Sequence record: PZ445437.1
Strand: one strand, 5' to 3'
Source: a phage
DNA: 64,000 nt
The notes beneath the pieces are model-generated. The model made no database searches. It worked only from the letters and a program-made list of their open reading frames with translations, and had not been told where the DNA came from. A program made the position numbers and the translations under genes. The first letter of the stretch is position 1. Each line of letters begins with the position of its first letter. This document shows, piece after piece, positions 42,464 through 54,429 of this stretch.

Positions 42464-42695
42464 TAATACAAGATACAGCCATATCTTGTAATGATTTAGG
42501 TGTGTCATTATCTAAAATGTTGAAGTTAAAAGATACAGCCCAGTCAGTGCAGACTGTAACCTTTTTAATACAATTATCTTCAACCTCTAGCGGTTCAAAC
42601 CAATATTCAATAATTTCTTTATGCCCAATATCATCTTTTACTTCGCATTCAAAATGCTGACTCATCATAACATTTTTAAATTCATCAAAAGTCAT
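42432..42695 (-). CDS. Hypothetical protein (87 aa)
   Basis: ORF coupled to the gene 47 stop. Confidence 0.45.
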   Translation of the reverse strand: MTFDEFKNVMMSQHFECEVKDDIGHKEIIEYWFEPLEVEDNCIKKVTVCTDWAVSFNFNILDNDTPKSLQDMAVSCIKDAYCEVFDI

Positions 42696-43711
42696 TGTGT
42701 TGCCTCTACATATAGCTGGTTTGCATATTGAATAAGTGCTTCACGGTCAGAATCAGTGATGTCTGGAATTGCATTAATGTATTCTTCCATCAACGTCTGA
42801 AGAGATTGAACTTCAACTTCTTCACTGTCATCTGACTCGACAGAGTTATCAATTTTTGACACAACTCGTAATGAATGCACAACTTTTTCTAGTTCAGATT
42901 CGAACTTCGTTAGATTTTTGTCTACTTCAGTTACTATAACACGTACTGATAGATTTGTAAAATCTTTATAGTCAATTTTTCCTTTAAATGGATAATGAAT
43001 TCTACGATGCCAGGTAGTGTTGTTTGGAATAAATTCCATTCGTTCTGTTTCTGTATCAAACATCCAGAACCCACGAGGGTCATTCTCGTCACCTGCAGTT
43101 AGTGTCCATGGTGTCCCAATATATCTGACGTTAGCAGCCTCAGAGATAGTATGGAAGTGACCAGACCACACTTCTTTATAAGTCTTAAGGAAATCAGGTT
43201 CAAGACCATGAGATTTCATTCCTTTATAAAAATAAAATCCGTTCAGTTCCCAGTGACCAACGCAAAAAGAAGCAGATGAAGTTTTGATGTGTTCAAGAAT
43301 TTCACCAGTATTTTCTTCACACATCCAAGGAATTAAATCAATTAAACATCCGTCAAAATCTACTGTAGTAGGCTTATCATATACTTTAACATTAGGATAT
43401 TTAGCCAAAAGCTCAGTAGAGGCATTTGGATGCATTACATTTTTATAGTGGAGATCGTGATTTCCTACAATAGTGTGTAATGTAATTCCAGCATCATCAA
43501 GCGTTTGAACTATTTCACGGGCAAACTCCATAGTTTTATGTGTGATCGCTTTTCTCACATCAAAAATATCACCATATTGAATCCAGGTAGTAATTCCATT
43601 TTTCTTAGAATATTCTATTGCTTGTTTAATTCCATCAATTTGAATACCGCGAATCCACTCATCATCAGCTTTAACGCCTAAATGCCAATCACCCAAGTTT
43701 AGTATTTTCAT
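42692..43711 (-). CDS. 47: Recombination nuclease subunit gp47 (Mre11/SbcD-like)
   Basis: 339 aa, the length of T4 gp47; phosphoesterase motifs GDWHLG, GDIFD, GNHD. Confidence 0.9.
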   Translation of the reverse strand: MKILNLGDWHLGVKADDEWIRGIQIDGIKQAIEYSKKNGITTWIQYGDIFDVRKAITHKTMEFAREIVQTLDDAGITLHTIVGNHDLHYKNVMHPNASTELLAKYPNVKVYDKPTTVDFDGCLIDLIPWMCEENTGEILEHIKTSSASFCVGHWELNGFYFYKGMKSHGLEPDFLKTYKEVWSGHFHTISEAANVRYIGTPWTLTAGDENDPRGFWMFDTETERMEFIPNNTTWHRRIHYPFKGKIDYKDFTNLSVRVIVTEVDKNLTKFESELEKVVHSLRVVSKIDNSVESDDSEEVEVQSLQTLMEEYINAIPDITDSDREALIQYANQLYVEATQ

Positions 43712-44312
43712 GGTGTCTTTTCCATCCTAATTTAGCTGCTTTTGAAACTAGTTCTTTAATTTTTCCTTTTGTCCATTCAGGACCAGGAGGTTCATGACAT
43801 AACATTTGCTTAACTCCGTTATTATACCATTTTTTACCTTTATTATGTGATGAAGCTTTAAATTTATTTGACCTTCCTTTTACATAACCTTCTGGAATAT
43901 AAGGCAAAAAGGCAGATTTTCCTGTTAATGGATCATGTGAATGTATATTTCCTTTACAATTATGAGAACCATATAATGGATGATTTTGTCCTTTATTATC
44001 TCTTCCAAATGAACCTTTTGGAGCAGCATATGACATATTAAAGAATAATGGATTTTTAACTGCATCATGCAATCGTTGATAATATAACTCGCATTTAATA
44101 GCTTCTTCACGCGTATCAAATTCAGCTAAAATGCATGAATCAAATAAGTGAGGATTATCTGAAAGCTCTTTATTATAAATTTTCTTATACTTTTTAGATA
44201 AAACTGAACCATGATATCCAGCTAAATGCCTATCTAAAGACGTAGATCCAATATAAAAAGGAGGAAGTTTATCTCCACTATATATTGTTAAATAAGTTAT
44301 ATATTTTTTCAT
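43689..44312 (-). mobile_element. GIY-YIG-type homing endonuclease-like gene (Seg-like, 207 aa)
   Basis: N-terminal YLTIYSGDKLPPFYIGSTS...R...E pattern (GIY-YIG-like) followed by Gly/His/Lys-rich NUMOD-like repeats (HPLYGSHNCKG, SHNKGKKWYNNG); 3' end overlaps gene 47. Confidence 0.5.
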
Positions 44313-44475
44313 ATATCAAGAACCGTCATTGAAATGCAAAATAAAATTATTGAAATAAATCCATCTGGAGTGCTAAAGAACCCAATCCAACATGCTCTAG
44401 TGAATAGATAAAATGCAAGAAAAAGTATCACATATCCAAGAAATATCATTATATCAAACTCCGTATAAAGCTAAA

Positions 44476-44487
44476 GGGCCGAAGCCC
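44476..44487 (-). terminator. GC-rich tetraloop hairpin after a-gt
   Basis: gggccgaagccc with flanking A/T runs. Confidence 0.45.
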
Positions 44488-44488
44488 T

Positions 44489-45691
44489 TTATTTTGTAAT
44501 AATGTCAAACTGTTCTTTAAAGCAGAAGCTTGAATCTTGATGCTGATACAAAAATTCATATGCTTTTTCTCGCTCACGGTCATAAAGAGCTCGGTCAGAT
44601 GACAGTTCTTTAATACGTTCAAATGTTGATTCCATATCATTTTCATCAAACCAAATGATACCGCTATCATGCGAGGTCAAAGGAGTATTATCAACACGGA
44701 ATTTTAAATTTTCGCCAGTAGATTTCCAAAATACCGGAATTGTTCCACATGCACCAAGCTCGAGATGAGTATATTCTAAAGAACGTTGTAGATATTTTTT
44801 ATCCAACTTACTCAACTGATAACCAAAACCGGATTTACTCATACGCTCAAGCATTTCGCTATTTACATAACGATCGAGAATTTGCGTTGGCAAATTAGGA
44901 GCAATTTTAATTTGGTCTACTTGATGAAGACGATAATACTCGTATTGAATTCCTTTTTCTTTAATAGGAATGAACGCTGGAGAACGTTCCAGACCTTCCA
45001 TAATAGTACTTAGTCCTGCAGGTTTAAGATGTTTTTCATGAAAATCAAACATCTGATAAAAACCTTTCCATGTAGTCGTACGACCAATCCAACGGTTGAT
45101 ATTCATGTTAATTTCAGAAACATCTTTCCAGTAGGTTGACCGAACCTTCGCAATATCCATAGGAGGCTGAAAGTTATATACTGTCGGTGCTTCTTCAATA
45201 TCATCAAACAGAGAAACAGTTTCTGGATACCATTCTTTCATCAGAACTTTATTAAAATCACCATTATCAGAATGGCTAAAAATAACATCAGCTCGACGAA
45301 CAGTTTCTTCTAATCCCAAATTTCGACGCAAAGAAAGAGAAGAATGGTCATGCTGATAAACTACAACACGAACCGAAGGTTTAATGTTATCAATAATTTT
45401 TTTATAGTTATTAATAGTGTCTTCTTCAACCGAAGTAGCAGGAACTGAATTGATAATTAGAATATCACAATCATTTACCAGCTTAAGTGTTTTATCATAT
45501 TCTTTTGCCAATAAAACCGGAATTGAAAATGATTTATAATCATGCGCGCAATTACGAGTAAATGATTTATCTTTAGCATAAACCAAAGTCACTTCATGAC
45601 CATTTTTAATAAACCAATCACGTTGCTCGAGTGAGAATTTTGTTACACCACAACCTTCAAGACCTCGAGCCATAAAAATACATACTTTCAT
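44489..45691 (-). CDS. a-gt: Alpha-glucosyltransferase-like protein
   Basis: 400 aa, the length of T4 alpha-gt, in the expected position between 47 and 55. Synteny and length. Confidence 0.65.
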   Translation of the reverse strand: MKVCIFMARGLEGCGVTKFSLEQRDWFIKNGHEVTLVYAKDKSFTRNCAHDYKSFSIPVLLAKEYDKTLKLVNDCDILIINSVPATSVEEDTINNYKKIIDNIKPSVRVVVYQHDHSSLSLRRNLGLEETVRRADVIFSHSDNGDFNKVLMKEWYPETVSLFDDIEEAPTVYNFQPPMDIAKVRSTYWKDVSEINMNINRWIGRTTTWKGFYQMFDFHEKHLKPAGLSTIMEGLERSPAFIPIKEKGIQYEYYRLHQVDQIKIAPNLPTQILDRYVNSEMLERMSKSGFGYQLSKLDKKYLQRSLEYTHLELGACGTIPVFWKSTGENLKFRVDNTPLTSHDSGIIWFDENDMESTFERIKELSSDRALYDREREKAYEFLYQHQDSSFCFKEQFDIITK

Positions 45692-45934
45692 TTAATATCC
45701 TCTTTGTTTTGGTTTATTTTACCAAAAATTTATAAAGCAATATAGGAGCCGAAGCTCCTATCCGCATAATACGCCATACAGAGGCTCGTTAGAACTTTTA
45801 AATTTTATGCGCTTATATTTTATAGTTCCTTCTGCTTTAGCTTTATCATGAGACTCTTTAAAGCGTCTCATCATTTCCTCTTTAGAGGAACGAATTTTAT
45901 TATAATCTATTTCAGAAGTCTGGGTGTTCATCTT

Positions 45935-51333: not shown

Positions 51334-53147
51334 TGGTGTTTAACCCTATGCATGATTTCTTTATTTTTACCGAGATTAAATCCGCGTTCGTTCGGATTTC
51401 CCAAATAACCACATGTTCTTCTTATTGTGTTCATCTTTTTAGGATCAGTTTCTCCACAAATAGAACAAACAAATCCGTTTTCAGTAGGAGTCATTTCATG
51501 GGTACTTCCACATGTAAAACATTTATCTACTGGCATATTAACACCAAAATAATCTAAATGTTGTGCAGCATAATCCCATACGGCCTCAAGACCCTTTAAG
51601 TTATTTTTCATATCAGGAAGTTCAACATAAGAAATGTGACCACCTGTCGCAATGAAATGATATGGCGCTTCACGAGAAATCTTTTCAAACGGAGTAATAT
51701 TTTCTTCTACTGAAACGTGGAAACTGTTAGTGTACCAGCCTTTATCGGTAACATCTTTTACACTTCCATATTTTTCTGTATCAAGTTTACAGAAGCGATA
51801 ACAAAGGTTTTCAGCAGGAGTAGAATACAAACTAAAAGCAAACCCAGTTCTTTCAGTCCACTGTTTAAGACGAGCATTCATTTTAGTTAAAATTTCTCGT
51901 CCAATATCACGACCTACAAGAATATTCAATTCGTGAATACCAATGTATCCTAGAGACACTGAACTTCTGCCATTTTTAAATAACTCAATTATATCGTCAT
52001 CAGGTTTAAGACGAACCCCGAATGCACCTTCTTGGTAAAGAATAGGAGCAACAGTTGCTTTAACTCCTTTTAAGGAACTAATTCTACACATCAAAGCTTC
52101 AAAACACAAATCCATTCGCTCATTGAACAATTCGATAAATTTCTGTTCATTGAACTGTGTTCCAATATAAGAATCTAATGCGATACGAGGAAGATTCAGT
52201 GTTACAACACCAAGATTATTACGTCCATCAAGAATTTCATTACCAGTCGAATCTTTCCATACGCTCAAGAAACTACGGCAACCCATCGGAGAAACAGGAA
52301 CAGATGAACCAGTGATAGCTTTATTGTTCTTAGCTGAAATAATATCAGGATACATCCTTTTGCTTGCGCACTCTAGAGCAAGCTGTTTAATATCATAGTT
52401 CGGATCGTCTTTATAAAGATTAACACCTTCTTCAACAAACATAACAAGCTTAGGGAAAATAGGAGTTATCCCATCACGACCAAGACCTTTAATACGATTT
52501 TTCAGAATTGCTTTCTGAATCATTCGTTCAGTCCAGTCAGTTCCCGTACCAAATGTAATTGTTACAAAAGGCGTTTGTCCGTTTGAACTAAAGAGAGTAT
52601 TTACTTCATATTCATAAGCTTGGAATGCATCGTATACATCTTTTTCTGTTTTAGATTGAGCATAATTCAGTGCATCGGCGATTTGCCATTTTTCTGCATC
52701 CTCAATATGTTTTGCATAGGTGCGTTTAACATAAGGAGAAAGTACTTTATCTACATTAGCAAAAGTCGTTCCGCCGTATTGATGGGAAGCAACCTGTGCA
52801 GTAATTTGTGCCATAATTGCAGTAGCAACTCCAATTGATTTAGGAGTTTCAATCTGCGCATTACCAAGCTTAAATCCGTTCTCAAGCATTCCTTTTAAAT
52901 CTACTAAACAGCAATTAGTAAAAGGCAATGATATACTGTAATCTAAATCATGAAAATGAATTAATCCAACATTATGGGCATTTACAATATGACTTGGAAG
53001 AATACGACAAGCGATATGTTTAGAAACAATACCGGCCATTAAATCTCTTTTTGTTGGAAAGACGCGAGAATCTTTGTTGGCGTTTTCTGTATTTAATTCT
53101 TTATCTTTATTTGAAATAAAATTTAAAACATCTTTTTCTAAAGACAT
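51330..53147 (-). CDS. nrdD: Anaerobic ribonucleotide reductase NrdD (glycyl radical enzyme), uninterrupted
   Basis: 605 aa, the length of T4 NrdD; C-terminal glycyl-radical motif RRTCGYLG; no intron. Confidence 0.92.
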   Translation of the reverse strand: MSLEKDVLNFISNKDKELNTENANKDSRVFPTKRDLMAGIVSKHIACRILPSHIVNAHNVGLIHFHDLDYSISLPFTNCCLVDLKGMLENGFKLGNAQIETPKSIGVATAIMAQITAQVASHQYGGTTFANVDKVLSPYVKRTYAKHIEDAEKWQIADALNYAQSKTEKDVYDAFQAYEYEVNTLFSSNGQTPFVTITFGTGTDWTERMIQKAILKNRIKGLGRDGITPIFPKLVMFVEEGVNLYKDDPNYDIKQLALECASKRMYPDIISAKNNKAITGSSVPVSPMGCRSFLSVWKDSTGNEILDGRNNLGVVTLNLPRIALDSYIGTQFNEQKFIELFNERMDLCFEALMCRISSLKGVKATVAPILYQEGAFGVRLKPDDDIIELFKNGRSSVSLGYIGIHELNILVGRDIGREILTKMNARLKQWTERTGFAFSLYSTPAENLCYRFCKLDTEKYGSVKDVTDKGWYTNSFHVSVEENITPFEKISREAPYHFIATGGHISYVELPDMKNNLKGLEAVWDYAAQHLDYFGVNMPVDKCFTCGSTHEMTPTENGFVCSICGETDPKKMNTIRRTCGYLGNPNERGFNLGKNKEIMHRVKHQ

Positions 53148-53959
53148 AATTCTAATTTATCCTTTTGAAATTCTTCGTCTAAATATGGGTTCCAACCCAT
53201 TTTAAACCTTTTGATGAAATTATCAATTCTAAATTTCGGTAAGTTTAAATCCGCAAAAATAGATGATTTACTTTTAAAATCTGGACTTAAATAATCATAT
53301 AAAATTTCTGCGTATTTTAACCATAATATACAAGTACCAGATTTAATTGCTCTCGGAGTTTTCCAAGGTTTTACACCATACATCGGATTTCCGCTTCCTT
53401 TATGCCTGATAGAAGATGAAATTCCAATTTTAATTTTAGCTTCCTTTGTATGCGAAAATCCACGATGTGGATTTTCTTTCCAGTATTTTTTAGAAGCTTC
53501 TGATATTTTCTTTCTGGCTAAATTAGTATGATGCTTTCCATAAAATCCATGATTTTTGCCTTTATTACGATTTCTTTTAATCATGGTTATTGATTGCTTT
53601 TCTCTAGTTTCTTTAGAAGGAGAAATACCATATGTCGTAAATTTGCCATCAGCATATGCTAAATTAAAATACTCTTTATTCCATACATCTTTTTCTATAT
53701 TCTTTTGAAATTCAGCTTCAATGCTAGTTATTTGTTCATCTCCGACTAATTGAAAATATAATATTTCAACTTTCGGCGTTTCTTTCAATAAGGCTTTTTG
53801 AAATTCGGAAGATGACGAAGACGAATAATAAAATTTACCATTTTTATCAATAATATTCGTTCCATCAAAAGTGCAATTGGTTTTACTTCCAATGTAATAA
53901 TATGGTGGGGTTTTAGCATTAATTCTATTAATAAATGATAGTTTATATACTACATTCAT
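53138..53959 (-). mobile_element. GIY-YIG-type homing endonuclease-like gene (Seg-like, 273 aa)
   Basis: N-terminal VYKLSFINRINAKTPPYYYIGSKTN (GIY-YIG-like) and NUMOD-like repeats (GKNHGFYGKHHT, HRGFSHTKEAKIKIG, GSGNPMYG); 3' end overlaps the nrdD start. Confidence 0.55.
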
Positions 53960-54429
53960 TTTAAACTCTTTCTAAGCTGCTTCTTAAATGAAGCTATTAA
54001 TTGTGTTTTAGTGTCAGATTCATTATATTCAAATCCTCTTTGAAGCATCTCAGCCATCATTTCCTCTTTTCCTAAACGAGAAAATTCCTTTGATTTATCT
54101 CCAACGAAGTTAGGGTGAATATTATTTTGGGTGTAATCGGATTTTAAATAAGTAAGTAAATTTTCTAACCATTCAAGATAATCAACTCCTTGTCCCTTTA
54201 AGCCAGAACGATTAAATTTATGCTTCATTTGACCTTCTGCGGCATTGCAGAGATTACAAAGCAATCCACGTACCTTTCCTGCTTTTGGTCCATTTAATTC
54301 ATGGTCATGGTCGAGGTGATTAGCTTGAACATCAGGATTTAGTTCTCGTTGGCAAATTAAGCATTTACCATTTTGTGCATCATAAAATTTCTGTTTTTCT
54401 TCTTTATATAATTTGCCAGTCAATAACAT
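53956..54429 (-). CDS. 49: Endonuclease VII (Holliday junction resolvase) gp49
   Basis: 157 aa, the length of T4 gp49; zinc-binding Cys pairs and HLDHDH motif. Confidence 0.85.
   Translation of the reverse strand: MLLTGKLYKEEKQKFYDAQNGKCLICQRELNPDVQANHLDHDHELNGPKAGKVRGLLCNLCNAAEGQMKHKFNRSGLKGQGVDYLEWLENLLTYLKSDYTQNNIHPNFVGDKSKEFSRLGKEEMMAEMLQRGFEYNESDTKTQLIASFKKQLRKSLK

Follow-up and report, generated by a model that had tools for sequence, protein, structure and literature searches.

A 601-bp cassette set exactly at the start codon of gene 47 is a real, optional selfish gene in the DNA analysed here, a stretch of 64,000 nucleotides from a phage (sequence record PZ445437.1; hereafter the window). 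Taking the identity of its product together with the homing model set out below, we consider it likely that the cassette encodes a Seg-type GIY-YIG homing endonuclease: a free-standing enzyme that joins a GIY-YIG N-terminus to an extended C-terminal DNA-binding region. The open reading frame (ORF) for this putative enzyme lies on the minus strand (43689..44312) and its identification draws on the ORF listing, PHROG, 170 homologues, dN/dS and a family HMM.

In the ORF listing, the frame comprises 207 aa, with its ATG at 44312..44310 and its TGA at 43691..43689, and overlaps gene 47 by 23 nt at the start of that gene; an earlier note on this DNA had given the same length and the same 23-nt overlap. 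Gene 47 itself (42692..43711, minus strand), recognised from the Pfam Metallophos family and the T4T annotation, encodes an SbcD/Mre11-type metallophosphoesterase; it is the conserved gene beside which the element is found without exception, and its presumed target. At its other end, the endonuclease ORF shares four nucleotides (ATGA, its own ATG plus a TGA stop) with 47.1 (44309..44449, minus strand), which encodes a predicted membrane protein of 46 aa. Between 47.1 and a-gt stands a terminator-like hairpin, seen in the sequence as GGGC-TTCG-GCCC on the gene strand (44472..44491), which some related records annotate as ‘terminator’; a-gt (44489..45691; Pfam AGT, E 2e-236) lies further upstream, behind it. 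The hairpin marks the upstream boundary of a block consisting of 47.1, the endonuclease ORF and gene 47. The ORF had been described as sitting between 47 and a-gt and it does fall inside that interval, but its immediate upstream neighbour is 47.1 and not a-gt.

No separate promoter was found between 47.1 and the endonuclease ORF, and the sequence upstream of the ORF shows neither a late promoter (TATAAATA) nor a full MotA box nor a sigma-70 promoter above background. In this respect the cassette looks similar to several seg and mob genes of T4 that have been described as lacking promoters, the Seg genes among them being placed beside their target gene (PMC2988022).

Junction alignments define the cassette as a 601-bp segment that is missing from T4, T2, T6 and about 455 other records. 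It occupies 43712..44312 or, equally, 43705..44305, owing to a 7-bp direct repeat, ATGAAAA, whose upstream copy (44306..44312, minus strand) begins the endonuclease ORF and whose downstream copy (43705..43711, minus strand) is the start of gene 47 in the window. The upstream copy has the same position and the same upstream sequence as the gene 47 start in T4. On the gene strand, T4 reads ...CTTGATAT ATGAAAA TTTTAAATTTAGGTGATTGG and the window reads ...CTTGATAT ATGAAAA AATATATAAC... (endonuclease) ...AAGACACC ATGAAAA TACTAAACTTGGGTGATTGG; the start of gene 47 is thus re-created within the last eight codons of the cassette’s endonuclease ORF.

Among about 523 Tequatrovirus-type records that match the flanks, 68 contain the ORF and about 455 are empty; the site measures 1401 bp when occupied and 800 bp when empty, and the element is 601 bp long in the four carriers measured. 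T4T, T2, T6, RB18, MLF4, RB14, RB3 and RB51 are all empty at the site, in agreement with the earlier note, which had put no seg gene of T4 at this position. The presence/absence comparison of the 47 to a-gt interval that it had proposed therefore returned a precise 601-bp indel, and this polymorphism, flanked by a 7-bp repeat, supports the suggestion of an optional mobile insertion. The BASEL phage PaulHMueller is a carrier. Exact-pattern scans of IMG/VR found six empty sites and no occupied site, numbers too small for statistics.

The N-terminal GIY-YIG catalytic domain is predicted to span residues 1-103 (44004..44312, minus strand) and includes Y11, Y20-I21-G22, R28, Y33-x-G35-S, E75 and N92. 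GIY-YIG (PF01541) was the sole Pfam family found, aligned to residues 4-84 with an E-value of 3e-4 and 21.4 bits against a gathering cut-off of 22.6. A database search returned 170 homologues of the 207-aa protein, many with NUMOD3 motifs in their C-terminal half; 14 of 41 family members match PF01541 (E up to 0.01) and 19 of the 41 contain NUMOD3. The PHROG match was phrog_10820 (E 1e-94), labelled ‘HNH endonuclease’, with a looser match to phrog_314 (5e-18), labelled ‘homing endonuclease’, and a search of NCBIfam yielded no family. An alignment of 41 homologues has eight invariant residues (Y33, G35, S39, L56, F57, A71, E75 and N92), and a further eleven, Y7, T9, Y11, G13, Y20, I21, G22, S23, K40, Y42 and R68, are at least 90% conserved. 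The hallmarks of the GIY-YIG motif—T9-I10-Y11, Y20-I21-G22, the glutamate E75 and the asparagine N92—are all present and conserved in the family, so the GIY-YIG-like N-terminus noticed in the earlier note is real. The profile searches called for there likewise led to nucleases: Pfam GIY-YIG, albeit under the cut-off, the homing endonucleases of phrog_314 and, as detailed below, T4 SegE.

On alignment, both tyrosines, the glutamate and the asparagine are kept, while the arginine column is variable. At the position of the catalytic arginine of I-TevI (R27) the protein has R28, in a short helix after strand 2; its relatives mostly have lysine here and occasionally Q, S or E. The T4 enzymes SegA-E, most of which are listed as active (PMC2988022, Table 1), have D-G-Y-x-G-S-G in the stretch that follows YIG and also lack the arginine. 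Judged from these sequences, arginine variability would accordingly be a trait of the Seg type and not a sign of lost activity.

AlphaFold2 modelled residues 1-90 with a pLDDT of 94-98 and secondary structure in the order strand-strand-helix-helix-strand-helix. Fold comparison of the model gave GIY-YIG matches, the predicted three-stranded sheet being flanked by helices as in the catalytic domain of I-TevI. I-TevI was recovered by fold comparison only: searches of PDB sequences with the single sequence and with the family profile found nothing relevant, and hhalign against I-TevI, alone or with six close relatives, gave a probability of 0.2 while pairing E75 with E75 and N92 with N90. A homologue search with I-TevI, the sequence of which was checked against 1MK0/1LN0, gave only nine close relatives, too few for a useful profile.

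The C-terminal half (residues 104-207; 43689..44003, minus strand), as delimited by AlphaFold2 models and by alignment with SegE and SegB, is the presumed DNA-binding region. It opens with a NUMOD3-like stretch (NHPLYGSH), at the same position as the NUMOD3 found in relatives, and continues through two predicted beta-hairpins and a K-W-Y-N-N-G ... P-E-W-x-K-G-K motif to a terminal helix. The motif aligns with the C-termini of T4 SegE (TFWVNNG...PDGFIKGR) and SegB (PEGWFKGR), and by analogy with these enzymes we infer that this half of the protein binds DNA. When it was modelled alone, no solved PDB structure matched its fold. The earlier note had also spoken of Gly/His/Lys-rich repeats, which stands in so far as the two beta-hairpin modules of the model share a SHN-KG ... 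P-EG-(Y/W)-x-KG-(R/K) pattern, but not as a repeat in the sequence itself, which was not significant (73 of 500 shuffles scored as well).

To place the protein among known nucleases, the family profile was searched against a set of 12 sequences, with the T4 GIY-YIG genes taken from T4T genome regions; bit scores are the proper measure, as E-values refer to the 12-sequence set. SegE scored 39.2 bits over its full length, SegG 21.5 bits across the catalytic domain, SegC 18.7, SegB 12.5, I-TevII 11.5, I-TevI 4.7 and EndoII 0.8 bits. SegE is thus the best match of all T4 nucleases and aligns end to end with the family profile. The two share the motifs Y-I-G ... (D/K)-G-Y-x-G-S, the glutamate helix and the asparagine, together with a C-terminal W-x-N-N-G ... 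P-x-G-(F/W)-x-K-G-R module that also occurs in SegB, and they are of similar size (205 aa for SegE, 207 aa here). Their settings are alike too: segE lies between inh and uvsW, directly upstream of its listed target uvsW, and the new gene lies directly upstream of gene 47, its presumed target. However, the likeness holds at the profile level only (the single-sequence score is 13 bits, and T4 is absent from the tblastn matches at E 1e-5), and the spacing from GIY to YIG is two residues shorter in the new protein. Unlike segE, the new ORF overlaps its neighbour’s start and takes over its translation start; and whereas DNA cutting by SegE has been demonstrated, the new protein is a putative nuclease.

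I-TevI is encoded in an intron, in the T4 td gene, whereas the gene-47 endonuclease does not lie in an intron and has no significant sequence match to I-TevI at 4.7 bits. Neither a zinc finger nor a helix-turn-helix was recognised in the new protein, the C-terminal half of which is without a solved-structure match, and the equivalent of I-TevI R27 is not conserved in the new family.

Comparison with the copy in phiC600P9 (96.5% identical) gave a dN of 0.006 and a dS of 0.150, a ratio of 0.04; against copies in other genera, dN/dS is about 0.2. The endonuclease gene is under purifying selection and, given the ratio of 0.04 and the 170 homologues, is not a chance reading frame. Four of six carriers inspected have intact copies; the GEP001 copy has a nonsense codon at position 184, and in ESh36, whose record is unverified, the reading frame shifts within an A-run. 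An apparent 124-bp deletion in KNP1 and KNP5 turned out to be a run of N and not decay.

The two interrupted copies, like the variable arginine position, would fit a former homing endonuclease that is decaying or domesticated and no longer cuts, kept since translation of gene 47 relies on read-through ribosomes at the 23-nt overlap and on the takeover of its start; gene 47 has indeed been parted from the sequence that once preceded it, and its start now falls within the endonuclease ORF. We nevertheless regard such domestication as unlikely. A dN/dS of 0.04 at a dS of 0.15 indicates that the amino-acid sequence is constrained, not merely that the frame is held open; the residues of the catalytic motifs vary little or not at all; in two genera the gene has a rare and patchy distribution, which one would expect if the element were still invading and being lost; and cassette-free phages express gene 47 normally.

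Sequence differences between carriers and empty genomes were sought in an alignment of six carriers, ten T4-type empty genomes and four others, covering 1400 nt upstream and 1700 nt downstream of the insertion. Between the six carriers and the ten T4-type empty genomes there are no fixed differences upstream and only four downstream, all within gene 47 (nt 9, 10, 15 and 18; 43694..43703, minus strand), which form a candidate signature of target-site immunity. These substitutions, in codons 3-6, are all silent (ATA CTA AAC TTG in the window against ATT TTA AAT TTA in T4), and in the overlapping endonuclease frame they turn the tail FKFR into TKLG. The four-base allele was present in all six inspected carriers and, by identity, in at least 61 of the 68 carriers.

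The idea that this allele is exclusive to carriers was rejected, as empty genomes with the same allele were found: at least eight empty-site records, from about seven phages, have the carrier allele. SHFML-26, BCPEco_001, BCPSen_003 and Ec_YwIITB1 are empty and have the four-base allele; EPIMAM01, PBM-1 and UGKSEcP1, also empty, have it together with other changes; and RB14, again empty, has one of the four changes. Empty genomes of this kind would be the expected remnant of a deletion between the two ATGAAAA repeats. The gene 47 sequence around the allele is not always the same: it resembles T4 in the window, whereas in EPIMAM01 it resembles T6 from nt 45 onwards. On its right side, the minimal cassette therefore ends somewhere from nt 18 to nt 45 of gene 47. 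Variable sites per 100 nt number 18, 18 and 27 in the first 300 nt of the gene (43412..43711) and 6-12 in the remainder, which makes the first part two to three times as variable. Linkage alone could account for the four-base association, given its closeness to the insertion; the substitutions adjoin the insertion, alter the endonuclease tail and occur in empty records, all of which weakens the association as evidence of immunity.

The cassette duplicates ATGAAAA, so that the endonuclease occupies what was formerly the translation start of gene 47, still coupled to 47.1, and the 3′ end of the cassette supplies a new gene 47 start region with the 23-nt overlap. If the protein is an active homing endonuclease, it would in a mixed infection cut the cassette-free allele at, or close to, the point where 47.1 meets gene 47 or the 5′ end of the latter, a region that adjoins the codons for the conserved GDWHLG phosphoesterase motif, where GATTGGCATTTAGG is common to several genera. 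The break would then be repaired from the carrier genome, copying in the cassette together with a stretch of gene 47 of varying length by intronless homing, and the carrier itself would be protected by an insertion that splits the site and by the four silent substitutions in codons 3-6. Our guess is an I-TevI-like geometry, in which the protein may bind the conserved codons and cut some 20-30 bp upstream, at the junction.

In phages that lack the cassette, the target is probably the junction of 47.1 and 47 or else the 5′ end of gene 47. SegF and SegG, which home into genes 56 and 32, are free-standing, promoter-less cassettes between conserved genes (PMC2988022), as is the new gene. According to a review, the cut made by free-standing endonucleases falls hundreds to thousands of bp away from the gene that encodes them, and for Seg enzymes a distance of hundreds of bp is common (PMC2988022). 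For the new cassette, by contrast, the sole carrier-specific differences are found no further than 18 nt from the insertion, a hint that the cut may be made at the junction. Given the distances typical of Seg enzymes, the junction model may nevertheless be wrong and the enzyme could cut at some other point in gene 47.

The association with gene 47 extends beyond the Tequatrovirus-type phages. In five other genera, gene 47 is directly preceded by full-length homologues that are 50-70% identical and in most cases overlap its start: in a Klebsiella phage (its empty-site relative, KpV477, is a Jiaodavirus), in Serratia phage LC53 (Winklervirus), in QL01 (Dhakavirus), in AV116 (Mosigvirus) and in Aeromonas phage L9-6 (Biquartavirus). 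The upstream neighbours of these homologues differ among the five groups, and the endonuclease frame across gene 47 ATGAAAAT reads H/N-E-N in three of the five genera. Relatives that have only the catalytic domain in common are located elsewhere; one in Yersinia phage TG1, with the same catalytic domain and a NUMOD3 C-terminus, adjoins a topoisomerase gene and not gene 47. Among Klebsiella phages the element is found in four of 162 matching records. Between gene 47 of a Klebsiella carrier and that of the empty KpV477, the first 261 nt differ at 51 positions and the following 159 nt are identical. This looks like a co-conversion tract and is the one indirect sign of homing in the data.

The recurrence of this link between endonuclease and gene 47 start in at least six genera could also mean something beyond repeated homing, namely that the element is a long-term partner of the recombination nuclease locus, a proposition that we consider improbable. 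In one version, cutting a competitor’s gene 47 would disable the gp46/47 exonuclease needed to process breaks, with the carrier supplying the exonuclease in trans; in another, the element may be part of the translational control of gene 47, since gene 47 now starts inside the endonuclease ORF.

That the protein is an active nuclease which serves chiefly to exclude competing phages, or to stimulate recombination or amplification of neighbouring genes, and not to spread itself, is to our minds very doubtful. Seg enzymes do contribute to the exclusion of T2 by T4 (PMC2993671), a 2026 paper reports SegB-driven amplification of anti-defence loci (PMC13096335), and gene 47 varies unusually in its first 300 nt. 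However, the data do not separate this reading from ordinary homing, exclusion is a by-product of the same cleavage, and no amplified or duplicated flanks occur in any locus examined.

The HNH endonuclease label given to the protein in RefSeq records and in PHROG 10820 is almost certainly mistaken, and we rejected that reading: it is favoured by database labels alone, no HNH family was found in Pfam at E up to 1, the fold and conserved motifs are those of GIY-YIG proteins, and, where SegE scored 39 bits, the HNH proteins T4 MobB and MobE reached 2.3 and 7.8 bits, with high compositional bias.

The catalogue of T4 seg and mob genes lists nothing at the gene 47 locus (PMC2988022, Table 1), and our literature search found no paper naming or characterising an endonuclease there. 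In public annotations the gene appears as ‘putative homing endonuclease’, as ‘homing endonuclease’ or, wrongly, as ‘HNH endonuclease’. It is an uncharacterised addition to a well-known class of phage mobile elements and not a new kind of system, and general understanding of homing endonucleases is unchanged. What a Seg-type homing endonuclease at this locus brings is an unnamed lineage of the Seg family linked to gene 47, the correction of a widespread ‘HNH endonuclease’ database label, and the prediction of a target at the 47.1/47 junction with immunity conferred by four silent bases. The endonuclease may also explain the mosaic hotspot in the first 300 nt of gene 47 in T-even genomes.

Many records, including RefSeq entries NC_054919, NC_054925 and NC_055723, as well as PHROG 10820, call the endonuclease protein an 'HNH endonuclease', yet neither its sequence nor its predicted fold has anything of HNH. 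GIY-YIG relatives from other T4-like phages bear this label too, among them that of the Yersinia phage TG1, where the accompanying annotation note reads GIY-YIG despite the product name.

Carriers of the cassette differ in detail. The endonuclease gene of Escherichia phage GEP001 has TGA instead of GGA at codon 184, with loss of the last 24 residues, which form the terminal helix; in this one lineage, the truncation may mark the beginning of decay. In the Klebsiella carrier SmallBear_ER8, the endonuclease gene is accompanied by an extra 53-aa ORF (1846-2007 of the fetched region L013), and together they stand where empty relatives have an a-gt/47 intergenic region with a hairpin (759-828 of L028 in the Jiaodavirus KpV477), so that the Klebsiella indel measures 762 bp rather than about 600 bp.

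The first 300 nt of gene 47 (window 43412-43711) are themselves variable among Tequatrovirus genomes, with variable sites two to three times commoner than in the remainder of the gene. At least two very different haplotypes occur in this stretch, T4-like and T6-like, and recombination between them takes place only tens of bases from the start codon.

Elsewhere in the window, a 277-aa reading frame at 53141-53971 on the minus strand contains a NUMOD3 motif (Pfam E-value 6.5e-7) and is weakly matched by the endonuclease family profile; it is probably a further free-standing homing-endonuclease-like gene. The HNH gene mobB, which in T4 sits between a-gt and a-gt.2, is absent from the window genome; at 45692-45931 its place is taken by just a 66-nt gap followed by a 57-aa ORF, a layout also seen in T2 and T6 and in the other phages that carry the gene-47 cassette.

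A short ORF lies directly 3' of 46.1 in T6 and T2 (1-449 of their fetched regions, L010 and L009) and in SHFML-26 and BCPEco_001 (3420-3916 of L021 and L022). It spans 855 bp in T6 and SHFML-26, where it is annotated as a 'homing endonuclease', and 615 bp in T2, whereas in the window and in T4 this position is occupied by the 5' end of gene 46. The 46/47 locus of other T-even phages therefore seems to host a second optional element, unlike the gene-47 cassette.
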